A stretch of DNA of 64,000 nucleotides from an uncultured Prevotella sp. GTDB lineage: Bacteria; Bacteroidota; Bacteroidia; Bacteroidales; Bacteroidaceae. The notes below the pieces were generated by a model. The model was not told the origin of the DNA. It did not search any database and saw nothing but the letters and a program-made list of their open reading frames with translations. The DNA is taken from NCBI GenBank assembly GCA_946535705.1, contig CAMNDT010000005.1:6616-70615 (forward strand), written 5' to 3'. Each line of letters begins with the position of its first letter. The stretch's first letter is position 1. Shown here piece after piece: positions 41,755-45,860 of this stretch. The position numbers and the translations under genes are program-made.

Positions 41755-43320
41755 ATGAGTAAGCAAGTTGAAAAGATTAAAGAGCTGATTGCTAAGCGTG
41801 AGCAGGCTCGTCTTGGAGGTGGTGAGAAAGCTATCGAAAAGCAGCACGCACGTGGCAAATACACAGCTCGTGAGCGTATCGAAATGCTCGTTGATGAAGG
41901 TAGTTTTGAAGAATATGATATGTTCAAGCTCCACCGTTGTCACAACTTCGGAATGGAGAAGAAGCAGTATCTTGGTGATGGTGTTGTAGCTGGTTCTGCA
42001 ACTATCGCTGGTCGTTTGGTATATGTTTACGCGCAGGATTTCACTGTAAACGGTGGTTCTCTCTCAGAAACCATGAGCCAGAAGATTTGCAAAGTAATGG
42101 ATATGGCCATGAAGATGGGTGCTCCTGTTATCGGTATGAACGACTCAGGTGGTGCACGTATTCAGGAAGGTATTTCTTCTCTCGCTGGCTATGGTGAGAT
42201 TTTCGAGCGCAACATCCTTGCTTCAGGTGTTATCCCACAGATTTCAATGATTATGGGGCCTTGTGCAGGTGGTGCAGTTTATTCTCCTGCCCTCACCGAC
42301 TTCATTCTTATGACAGAAGGAATCTCGTATATGTTCCTTACAGGTCCTAAGGTTGTAAAGACTGTTACTGGTGAGGATATTGATGCTGAGCACCTTGGTG
42401 GCGCTTCTGTTCACGCAAGCAAGAGTGGTGTAACTCACTTCACTGCGAAGACTGAGGAAGAGGCTTTCGAGCTTATCAAAACTCTGCTTTCATACTTGCC
42501 ATCTAACAACACAGAAGAGGCTCCACGCGTAGAATGCAATGATCCTATTGACCGTAAGGAAGATCTCTTGAACGAGATTATCCCTGAGGATCCAAACCAG
42601 GCATATGATATGTATAAGGTTATAAGCGCTGTTACCGATAACGGTGAGTTCTTCGAGGTTCAGCCTAAGTTTGCCAAGAACATCATCACTGGTTTTGCAC
42701 GCTTTAATGGTCAGAGCGTTGGTATTGTTGCCAACCAGCCTTCAGCTTATGCTGGTGTACTTGACGTAAATGCAAGTCGCAAGGGCGCACGTTTCGTTCG
42801 TTTCTGCGATGCTTTCAATATTCCAATCGTATCTCTTGTTGACGTTCCAGGATTCCTTCCTGGTACAGGTCAGGAGTACAATGCTGTTATCCAGCACGGA
42901 GCACAGCTTCTCTATGCTTATGGCGAAGCTACAGTTCCAAAGATCACAATCACCCTCCGCAAGAGCTATGGTGGTAGCCACATCGTAATGGGTTGCAAGC
43001 AGCTTCGCTCAGACCTTAACTTTGCTTGGCCATCAGCTGAGATTGCTGTTATGGGTGCAAGTGGTGCTGTTGCCGTTCTTGCAGCTAAGGAGGCAAAAGC
43101 TATTAAGGAACAGGGTGGCGATGTTAAGGCATTCCTTGCTGAGAAAGAAGAAGAATACACAGACCTCTTCGCTAATCCATATCAGGCAGCACAGTTCGGC
43201 TACATTGATGATGTTATCGAACCTCGCAACACACGTTTCCGTATCTGCCGCGGTTTGGCTCAACTCGCAACCAAACGCGAAACTATTCCAGCCAAGAAAC
43301 ACGCATGTATGCCAATGTAA
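41755..43320 (+). CDS. acyl-CoA carboxyltransferase (MmdA/PccB family)
   Basis: GKYTARERI, NDSGGARIQEG, GPCAGGAVYSPA, DVPGFLPG, RKSYGG. Confidence 0.92.
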   Translation: MSKQVEKIKELIAKREQARLGGGEKAIEKQHARGKYTARERIEMLVDEGSFEEYDMFKLHRCHNFGMEKKQYLGDGVVAGSATIAGRLVYVYAQDFTVNGGSLSETMSQKICKVMDMAMKMGAPVIGMNDSGGARIQEGISSLAGYGEIFERNILASGVIPQISMIMGPCAGGAVYSPALTDFILMTEGISYMFLTGPKVVKTVTGEDIDAEHLGGASVHASKSGVTHFTAKTEEEAFELIKTLLSYLPSNNTEEAPRVECNDPIDRKEDLLNEIIPEDPNQAYDMYKVISAVTDNGEFFEVQPKFAKNIITGFARFNGQSVGIVANQPSAYAGVLDVNASRKGARFVRFCDAFNIPIVSLVDVPGFLPGTGQEYNAVIQHGAQLLYAYGEATVPKITITLRKSYGGSHIVMGCKQLRSDLNFAWPSAEIAVMGASGAVAVLAAKEAKAIKEQGGDVKAFLAEKEEEYTDLFANPYQAAQFGYIDDVIEPRNTRFRICRGLAQLATKRETIPAKKHACMPM

Positions 43321-43334
43321 AAAAATAAAATGCT

Positions 43335-43484
43335 ATGGATAAAAACGTGTATGCAGCAATAGCTATGGCTCTTTTTGAGTTCGAAGGCAATAATGTCCAC
43401 GACAAAGAGCCTGGCTTTATCACTATCAAAGAGCGTCACACTCTTTGGAACGCAAAGGTTCTCGGTTTTACACAGAAACCTTAA
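43335..43484 (+). CDS. 49-aa protein resembling the soluble C-terminal tail of OadG/MmdD (delta) subunits
   Basis: Not in ORF track; MDKNVYAAIAMALFEFEGNNVHDKEPGFITIKERHTLWNAKVLGFTQKP, between carboxyltransferase and biotin carrier. Confidence 0.75.
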   Translation: MDKNVYAAIAMALFEFEGNNVHDKEPGFITIKERHTLWNAKVLGFTQKP

Positions 43485-43538
43485 GTGATACTAAGAATTT
43501 ATTGATTAGCGTTTGAACGCTATAAAAGTATTAAGAAA

Positions 43539-43967
43539 ATGAAAGAATTCAAATACACCATCGATGGTAAAGAATACAAAGTTACCATCGGCGACATTGA
43601 TGAGAACAATGTAGCTGCCGTAAATGTAAACGGCGACGACTACAAGGTTCAGCTCGAAAAGAAGGAAGAGCCAAAGAAAGAAAAGCCAGTATTGGGCAAG
43701 CCTGTAGCAGCTGAAAGCGAATCTGAAGCTGCACCTACAGCAAACGTAAACACCAATAACGCCATCAAGGCTCCACTGCCTGGAACAATTACAGGTATCG
43801 AGGTAGAAGTTGGTCAGGAAGTTAAGGCTGGCGATACACTTGTTGTTCTCGAGGCTATGAAGATGGCTAATAATATCGAAGCAGAGAAAGACGGTAAGGT
43901 GACCGCTATCTGCGTTAAGGTAGGTCAGGCCGTACTCGAGGAAGATGCGCTGGTGGTAGTGGAATAA
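43539..43967 (+). CDS. biotin carboxyl carrier protein (MmdC-like)
   Basis: LEAMKMANNI biotinylation motif, APLPG. Confidence 0.92.
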   Translation: MKEFKYTIDGKEYKVTIGDIDENNVAAVNVNGDDYKVQLEKKEEPKKEKPVLGKPVAAESESEAAPTANVNTNNAIKAPLPGTITGIEVEVGQEVKAGDTLVVLEAMKMANNIEAEKDGKVTAICVKVGQAVLEEDALVVVE

Positions 43968-43992
43968 TAGATCTCACTTCGTTCGCTCAATT

Positions 43993-44640
43993 AATAATGA
44001 GTAGCTAATAATGAGTAATGAGTAATGAGTAATGAATTATGAATGAAAATGAAAGTTAGTAATGAATAATGAAAATTATTATTGACGAATAGAGCTTATA
44101 TTTAGAAAGCAACAATTACCCAATAATGAAAAATGAGTAATGTTTCCATTACTCATTTTTCATTTAAAACGAATAATAAAATGAAAAACATAATACTTGA
44201 AAAAACAGAAGAATTTGGAAAGAAAATATCTCGTCTTAATATTTATCTGATAAAAAAGAAACACGAATATACACGATCAGACCAAATATTAAGAAGTGGA
44301 ACAAGTATAGGTGCAAATGTAACGGAAGGTACTTACGCTCAATCACATGCGGATTTTATCAGCAAAATGAGCATTGCATTCAAAGAGGCTCAAGAAACAA
44401 AATATTGGCTTAATATATTGTATGATTCACAGTTTATTACAACAGACGAATATACCTCATTATTGAATGACAATATGGACATAATAAGAATATTAGCCAG
44501 TATTCTCAAATCAGCCAAAAATAAAAGCGAAAAAAAATAATGAGTAACGGTCTCTCCCCCATTACCCATTATTCAATATAAATTAACTAAAAGCGCTGCG
44601 CACTTCATTACTCATTACTCATTATTCTTTACTCATTATT
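43993..44640 (+). mobile_element. putative cassette: four-helix-bundle gene between inverted AATGAGT heptamer arrays
   Basis: Left arm 43993-44036 vs right arm 44604-44640 (~37-bp IR, 3 mismatches plus one extra unit); inner hairpins 44125-44164 and ~44536-44573. Confidence 0.65.
44181..44540 (+). CDS. four helix bundle protein (TIGR02436 / 23S rRNA-IVP family)
   Basis: QILRSGTSIGANVTEG..AQS.ADFISKMSIAFKEAQETKYWL signature; visibly AT-richer than neighbours. Confidence 0.92.
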   Translation: MKNIILEKTEEFGKKISRLNIYLIKKKHEYTRSDQILRSGTSIGANVTEGTYAQSHADFISKMSIAFKEAQETKYWLNILYDSQFITTDEYTSLLNDNMDIIRILASILKSAKNKSEKK

Positions 44641-44658
44641 ATAATATCGGATTCGATA

Positions 44659-45003
44659 TTATAATCTGTTGTTTTCTTTTGGAAAAACAATACTTGGCTT
44701 AAAGCTCTTTGCATCTTCGAAATCCATAATGGCATAAGAGATGATTATCACAGTGTCTCCAACAAGCACTTGACGTGCAGCTGCACCATTAAGGCAAATG
44801 CAACCTGAGCCTCTCTCTCCTGCTATAATATAAGTTTCAAAACGATTGCCATTATTATTATCCACAATCTGCACTTTCTCGCCAGCAATCATGTTGGCTG
44901 CATCAAGAAGGTCTGCATCAATAGTGATGCTACCCATATAATTAATGTTTGCCTCTGTTACAGTGGCACAATGAATCTTACTTTTTAATACCTCTATCTG
45001 CAT
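44659..45003 (-). CDS. panD: aspartate 1-decarboxylase
   Basis: [13 protein letters not shown] (G-S self-cleavage), RFETY, LNGAAAR. Confidence 0.96.
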
Positions 45004-45860
45004 TATCCCTTATACTTTATATGATCTATCAAACGGATAGGAGTCTTACCACAATATACCGTGATACATCCCACCACATAATCACTATCGTTCCAATCAG
45101 AAACTGCCTGAAGAGTGTTTCCATCGACTATCTCGAAATATTCCACTTCAAGACCTTCAACAGCATTAATGTCAGAAACGACCTTATCATGGGTTTCTTT
45201 CACACCATTCTCCTTTGCAAAAGCAACGCTTTCTTTCAAAGCCTTATATATATTAGGAGCAATCTTGCGCTCATCATCAGCAAGAAGAGTGTTGCGACTG
45301 CTCTTTGCCAGACCATCCTCATCACGAATAATCTCGCATTCAACAATCTGCAGCTTATCCTGCATTCCGATAAACTTAACAAGTTGTTTAACAACAGCAA
45401 TCTGCTGCCAATCCTTTTCACCAAAATAGGCGCGATCTGGACGAACTATATAGAACAAACGACTAACAACCTGACACACACCATTAAAGTGTCCAGGGCG
45501 CTTAGCACCCTCCATAACAGTAGATACCGGTGGAAATTCAAAATGACGATTGTCAGCAACTGGATACATTTCCTCTACTGATGGAGCAAAACAATAGTCG
45601 GCACCACAAGCATCCAAAAGTTTGCAATCAGCTTCCAATGTACGAGGGTAACGATCCAAATCACCCTGATCGTTAAACTGGGTAGGATTCAGAAAAACAG
45701 AAACAACAGTAACATCATTCTCTTTGACACTACGCTTTACCAACGACGCATGGCCTTCATGAAGGGCGCCCATAGTAGGAACAAGTCCTACACTCTTCCC
45801 CTCTTTTCTAATATCAAATAATTCATTCTGAAGGTCAACAATCTTTTTGATTATCTTCAT
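45003..45860 (-). CDS. panC: pantoate--beta-alanine ligase
   Basis: [36 protein letters not shown]. Confidence 0.96.

Follow-up and report, generated by a model that had tools for sequence, protein, structure and literature searches.

An S23p-family gene between inverted heptamer arrays in a Prevotella genome: a probable hairpin cassette of the intervening-sequence type outside rRNA

In the genome of an uncultured Prevotella sp. we found a gene of the PF05635 family, first found in 23S rRNA intervening sequences (IVSs), packaged between a tandem heptamer array and its inverse. With a probability of roughly 70%, we consider this locus to be a hairpin cassette of the IVS type lying outside rRNA, whose arms would pair in the transcript and be cut by RNase III, as happens to the stem of the Coxiella IVS. 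The comparison of sequences across loci shows the succession of array, open reading frame (ORF) and inverse array to be, at that level, a conserved unit of the PF05635 family, whether within 23S rRNA or elsewhere. The arms stay complementary even though loci differ in the sequence of the repeat unit, and between strains they grow or shrink by whole 7-nt units. The window, that is, the whole stretch of DNA that was analysed, comprises 64,000 nucleotides of a metagenome-assembled genome (2.53 Mb in 133 contigs, 41% GC) whose nearest named relatives are Prevotella MAGs; one contig of assembly GCA_002391185.1 is 100% identical to it over 2.2 kb, and locus L117, 100% identical to the window, shows no variation.

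The cassette occupies the convergent spacer between the biotin-carrier gene and panD, and its features are collected in Table 1. The gene, the inverted AATGAGT and ACTCATT arrays, the 18-bp hairpin and the hairpin over the stop codon are all present where a first-pass annotation of this DNA had placed them. The outer arms are 92% complementary over their 37 nt, and the 18-bp hairpin ends 16 nt before the ATG. Like it, the hairpin over the stop codon is built from the heptamer of the arrays. The same annotation had envisaged that the ORF would be looped out of a long stem, and the predicted fold of the 692-nt RNA agrees with it: the outer arms are closed and the ORF lies in the loop, with a minimum free energy (MFE) of -158.7 kcal/mol (z = -8.0) that none of 20 shuffles reached. 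The last helix of this fold is the AT-rich hairpin at the end of panD. In its predicted fold the cassette therefore has the terminal inverted repeats that form a long stem with a looped ORF, as an IVS does, and it is flanked by protein genes instead of being inserted in a helix of 23S rRNA. The stop-codon hairpin with its minus-strand T run looks like an intrinsic terminator for panD-panC, and GCGC mini-palindromes similar to the GC-rich one next to the downstream array adjoin other arrays of the host genome. A search of positions 43000-45500 against Rfam matched no RNA family. As the annotation had said, the cassette holds no recombinase of its own; RNase III is encoded by the host genome.

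Table 1. Features of the cassette and its neighbours (positions in the window)
Feature	Position	Strand	Remarks
Biotin-carrier (BCCP) gene	43539-43967		Upstream of the PF05635 gene; a carboxyltransferase gene is also upstream
Upstream heptamer array, AATGAGT / AATGAAT type	43989-44073	+	Tandem Repeats Finder, period 7
Left outer arm of the stem	43992-44028	+	Inverted pair, 37 nt
Perfect core of the upstream array, TAATGAG x3.9	44009-44035	+	Tandem Repeats Finder
Perfect 18-bp hairpin of the AATGAGT heptamer	44125-44164 (44125-44142 / 44147-44164)	+	4-nt loop; 100% complementary
PF05635/TIGR02436 (S23p family) four-helix-bundle gene	44181-44540	+	119 aa
Stop-codon hairpin	44535-44574	-	Terminator-like site, 16 pairs, TTTTTT tail
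Short GC-rich palindrome AGCGCTGCGCA	44590-44606	.	Abuts the downstream array; terminator-like on the minus strand
TCATTAC x4.9 in the downstream array	44605-44638		Tandem Repeats Finder
Downstream heptamer array, ACTCATT type = right outer arm	44605-44641	+	Inverted pair, 37 nt
10-bp AT-rich hairpin TATAATATCG / CGATATTATA	44640-44663	.	Overlaps the panD stop codon, just beyond the cassette
panD	44659-45003		Downstream of the PF05635 gene, convergent; panC is also downstream

The assignment of the protein to its family is clear, with matches to Pfam PF05635 over residues 2-106 (88.1 bits against a cut-off of 33.8) and to NCBIfam TIGR02436 (95.5 bits against a cut-off of 24). The host genome carries five paralogs that are 40-45% identical to each other and in which R38, S42, N46 and E49 are invariant, giving the motif R-x3-S-x3-N-x2-E; in the published motif GxxRxxxSxxxNxxE (PMC3936711) a G precedes these residues, whereas our protein has Q35 at that place. 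A profile built from the five paralogs found, among PDB entries, 2RLD from Bacteroides thetaiotaomicron (3.5e-49) and 2GSC, which is XCC0516 from Xanthomonas (6e-4), each with five chains in the entry, and XCC0516 is reported as a pentameric ring in the work that PMC4990558 cites for it. Both structures are clear sequence homologs of this family, and the 119-aa protein would by homology form a pentamer as well. An exact-protein look-up with the 119-aa product returned no match, because gene callers start at an upstream ATG and call a product of 135 aa. The nearest homolog outside the species is 72% identical and sits in a different gene neighbourhood.

Inverted arms around PF05635 genes, for which the first-pass annotation had proposed searching this genome and its relatives, turned out to be widespread. 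As an own-genome control, each of 1814 crude gene calls was scored for how well its two 220-nt flanks complement each other (median 8.75, 99th percentile 14). On this scale the genome's five clear PF05635 genes score 38, 29.5, 28, 22.5 and 17.5, ranking 2nd, 4th, 5th, 6th and 11th of the 1814, so that all five fall within the top 11, and the gene of this cassette is the one that scores 29.5 and ranks 4th. The repeat unit differs at each of the five loci, with an arm period of 7 in four of them and of 8 in one. Since the paralogs have diverged and each has its own unit, complementarity has been kept while the sequence has changed.

We then turned to 80 loci fetched with the five-paralog profile, drawn from Bacteroidota, Clostridia, Acidobacteriota, Desulfobulbia, Verrucomicrobia, Alphaproteobacteria, Ignavibacteria, Treponema and others, of which 71 were testable. 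Their median score is 20.5, against shifted controls that reach 8.5 at the median and 13.7 at the 99th percentile, and period-7 inverted arms occur in about 70% of these relatives across many phyla, a fraction obtained with a rather loose criterion from a non-random sampling of the family. The arm period is 7 in all 51 foreign loci scoring at least 14. Period-7 arrays lie within 300 nt of the gene in 46 of 67 cases, compared with 2 of 57 pairs of control windows some 800-1100 nt from it, and across phyla they lie at the edges of the ORF: the first downstream unit often contains the stop codon, and the array often ends at the ATG. Because the 80-locus sample leans to relatives of armed copies, 40 further PF05635 genes were taken from 35 other Bacteroidota genomes, and 28 of them score at least 14, with period 7 in 25 of those 28. 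The armed fraction depends on the criterion and on the clade.

The units themselves have a recognisable composition near the clade of our protein, where 47 of 56 cassettes have AAT[T/G] followed by three free bases (shuffled units: mean 15, maximum 25). This core is clade-specific; as a universal core it was rejected, the units in broader Bacteroidota differing by eye and mostly containing AGT or TAG. The first-pass annotation had asked whether the repeat unit co-varies with the protein clade, and a co-variation was detected, pairs with the same unit being 55.3% identical compared with 52.5% otherwise (0 of 500 permutations, on rows that are not independent), which suggests a coupling that is real but weak. 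Mismatches in the arms are 24 of sense type and 28 of antisense type, with no strand-specific G-U signal, so that these counts do not separate selection at the level of RNA from pairing at the level of DNA.

The same build is present in true rRNA intervening sequences. Among 20 Clostridia-type loci, two (L139 and L143) have the PF05635 ORF inside 23S rRNA, with Rfam LSU matches of 771 and 716 bits. Inverted heptamer arrays stand on either side of both ORFs, the units being GAGAGGT and AGAGGTT and the scores 19.5 and 25. A published relative is the helix 45 IVS of Coxiella burnetii, in which an S23p ORF is enclosed by a 28-bp terminal stem that is cut by RNase III, and in which 2-3 tandem GACAGAT units of strain-variable copy number precede the ATG (PMC4990558). 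The likeness of our cassette to the ORF-bearing 23S rRNA IVSs of Coxiella, Leptospira and others thus extends to the family of the looped gene, a long stem built by terminal inverted repeats, heptamers in tandem by the ATG with a copy number that varies between strains, and the lack of a recombinase. It differs from the Coxiella type in lying between protein genes, in having longer arrays as arms and in two extra inner hairpins. With the build recurring in five of five paralogs, in about 70% of the sampled relatives and in the two rRNA IVSs, and fitting the Coxiella element, the earlier proposal of an IVS-like element outside rRNA is supported as far as the build is concerned.

We propose, by analogy with Coxiella, that the arms, once transcribed, would form a duplex RNA stem some 37 bp long, which RNase III would cut as it does in the Coxiella IVS, and the cutting could release the ORF-bearing RNA and part it from the neighbouring transcript. 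The 18-bp hairpin before the ATG may tune translation, and the stop-codon hairpin could double as a panD terminator on the other strand. The PF05635 protein itself would have a nucleic acid target, for which the periodic arrays are the most plausible candidate. If this cassette reading is true, IVSs would be one of the places where a general hairpin cassette lives, operons and intergenic spacers being others, the function of the family would become directly testable, and the repeats would gain a candidate protein partner.

The history of this copy was followed by aligning the spacer between the biotin-carrier gene and panD, as the first-pass annotation had suggested, and both states of the spacer were found: filled in the conspecific strains examined and lacking the gene in congeners. 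The synteny is conserved in six congeners, which show about 70% nucleotide identity, and none of the six has the gene in the spacer; one has a terminator only, one a one-sided array, two (G013 and G026) gene-less array hairpins and one other repeats. In G013 (contig C18) the spacer is about 760 nt long and is filled by a very large gene-less CATTGAA/GTTCAAT heptamer hairpin, nested in a second inverted pair made of 9-mer arrays of the CTGCGTTAC type. Every conspecific strain examined has the cassette at this site, with proteins 94-99% identical and about 99% identity across the aligned cassette. Between these strains, the upstream array has 2, 3 or 4 units, and the downstream array differs by -7, +7 or +56 nt relative to the window, a gain and loss of units that resembles slippage. 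The loop of the 18-bp hairpin reads TTTC in the window and its reverse complement GAAA in strains L118 and L121. An A7/A8/A9 tract varies between strains and moves the stop, so that the ORF of one strain crosses the whole downstream arm.

That the cassette is mobile, as had been supposed, fits these data in part: the gene is missing from the spacer of the six syntenic congeners, but every conspecific examined carries it, and neither a target duplication nor a recent copy was seen. The arm ends, inspected by eye, show no direct repeat that would mark a target-site duplication, and neither a near-identical second copy nor an enzyme for movement was found. The cassette also does not resemble a transposable element or MITE, its paralogs being as diverged as given above, with different arm units, and its nearest foreign homolog being 72% identical. 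The sequence history is compatible with an old gain, or with frequent loss, together with ongoing slippage, and movement is not demonstrated by it. As a separate observation, in another metagenome a 111-aa PF05635 gene lies downstream of an aldolase gene (L123:1400-1836); judged by eye, about 130 nt of its 3' part equal the window gene, its 5' half has diverged and its end is truncated, and a complete gene-less AATTAAA hairpin stands directly upstream of it. This gene may have arisen by recombination, or it may be a chimera of the assembly.

Heptamer arrays are not private to the cassette, a fact that the first-pass annotation had missed. The host genome holds 348 period-7 arrays (at least 2.8 copies) with 82 different units, 88% of them intergenic, compared with intergenic DNA making up about 14% of the genome, and about 66 of the 348 have no called gene before the contig end. 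Of 660 arrays of period 6-9, 82 are followed downstream by an inverted partner within 2.5 kb, in most cases at a distance below 200 nt, and the inverted pairs inspected as examples enclose no gene. Like simple repeats, the cassette arrays are tandem, 7 nt in period, intergenic and subject to whole-unit changes between strains. It could be considered that the arms are ordinary slippage-prone intergenic heptamers, perhaps terminators or spacers, and that the gene landed, or survives, in a pre-existing array hairpin that served it as target or habitat. The abundance of arrays and the gene-less hairpins in the same spacer of G013 and G026 mean that the arms could predate the gene, and the gene-less hairpin next to the related gene at L123 points the same way. 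We nonetheless find this account unlikely, as the arms closely abut the ORF in many phyla, as all five paralogs and some 70% of the sampled relatives are bracketed while arrays are rare 800-1100 nt away, and as the same arms occur in true rRNA IVSs, where an intergenic array could not pre-exist.

Against the IVS-type reading it also counts that the pairing of the arms and their cutting by RNase III are proposed by analogy, and that the flipped hairpin loop is a DNA-level event. The arrays might instead extrude as hairpins or as a cruciform and mediate template switching, gene conversion or insertion, with the protein ring as a DNA-binding accessory and RNA processing as incidental. Besides the loop flip and the unit-step array lengths between strains, this would account for arms without a sense-strand G-U bias, for gene-less arrays without consistent strand polarity relative to genes (for AATG arrays the two orientations count 55/30 downstream and 29/23 upstream), and for a nearest non-conspecific homolog in a different gene neighbourhood. 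Given the missing G-U signal and the DNA-level flip of the loop, a role at the level of DNA is therefore possible, and yet as the explanation of the locus we judge it quite improbable: recent copies are lacking (paralogs 40-45% and nearest foreign homolog 72% identical), a target duplication was not seen, and the only event shown experimentally for the module is the cutting of RNA by RNase III (PMC4990558). More speculatively, the first-pass annotation had suggested that the arms were built by a repeat-adding reverse transcriptase (RT) supplied in trans, an idea that we find scarcely credible. What speaks for it is the fold of the PF05635 family, which is related to that of Avd, the DGR accessory, a four-helix-bundle pentamer that binds nucleic acid and reverse transcriptase. 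The PDB matches of the five-paralog profile included no Avd structure by sequence, and the cassette differs from a DGR Avd module in having no adjacent RT. The differences between strains are simple steps of +/-7 nt, and the single RT of the genome lies on another contig, unlinked to any PF05635 gene. This sole RT gene (contig C128:2705-4237, L144:1057-2589) encodes a 510-aa RVT_1 protein directly upstream of a Hypoth_Ymh-domain gene (L144:2607-3398), a context that looks defence-like.

The IVS-type cassette reading may have a wider form, which we put forward tentatively and regard as rather doubtful: PF05635 rings would be the trans-acting partner of bacterial heptamer repeats, each subunit reading one core of AAT[T/G] plus three bases, with the gene cassette as the autonomous form and the hundreds of gene-less arrays and array hairpins as its non-autonomous derivatives or as binding sites. 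If true, it would account for the over-representation of 7-nt repeats and for their co-occurrence with PF05635. In 200 Bacteroidota genomes, matches to (AATKNNN)x3+AATK correlate with PF05635 matches at a Spearman coefficient of 0.62, a statistic that ignores kinship and base composition, the median number of array matches being 0 in genomes without PF05635 and 32 in those with 6-9 copies. In 150 genomes of the Clostridia-type phylum, at least 10 array matches were found in 12 of 30 genomes with PF05635 and in 2 of 120 without (Fisher p = 3.5e-8, with kinship and base composition again left aside). Array abundance thus seems to track PF05635 copy number in two phyla, which we take as a lead, not as proof. 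In the genomes whose matches were listed, most arrays do not share a contig with a PF05635 gene. In the Clostridia-type genomes G292, G260, G284 and G411 the listed arrays share one or two units per genome (AATGAGT; AATTAGG/AATGAGG; AATGCAC/AATTCAC; AATTGAC/AATGGAC), in contrast to the 82 units of the host genome, and G284 has many arrays and no PF05635 match.

Earlier papers treat the IVSs of rRNA, the heptamer repeats and the presence of PF05635 genes inside cas operons (PMC3936711), each on its own. Heptamer repeats have been published as GGGAATC in Xanthomonas and GGGGA(C/T)T in Nostoc (PMC4692102) and as TAACTGA in Beggiatoaceae, cyanobacteria and Bacteroidetes (PMC4679880); they are mostly intergenic, near start or stop codons, often paired convergently and variable in length between relatives, and their origin and function are left unexplained in print (PMC4692102, PMC4679880). 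No gene family is named for those repeats, whereas the arrays described here bracket a PF05635 gene and vary in abundance with PF05635 copies. The literature that we searched on PF05635, TIGR02436 and heptamer repeats contained no paper linking the arms to the family in general. Three puzzles are thereby joined, namely the origin of rRNA IVSs, the role of PF05635, a very widespread family whose structures are solved, and the excess of 7-base tandem repeats. There is also a practical side, as heptamer arrays break assemblies and slippage shifts gene ends.

Some further repeat-rich sites were noted in the host genome. A 227-aa ORF (contig C101:503-724) has a weak PF05635-like match at its N-terminus (29 bits, below the cut-off), and two different arrays lie just upstream of it, at positions 130-200 of the same contig, near the contig start. 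On contig C23 (1300-2950), a 345-aa lipoprotein-like gene has on both sides the same composite block, made up of a TAAATGA array together with a GCGC palindrome and a GAATTAGA/AATTCTCT hairpin, as if repeat modules had been directly duplicated on either side of the gene. Another dispersed repeat of intergenic DNA, rich in palindromes of the GGGAGGG/CCCTCCC type (for example cctctcccatccctcccc...ggga), was seen at C62:300-900, C123:54130-55560 and C8:1750-2420, and it often adjoins heptamer arrays.
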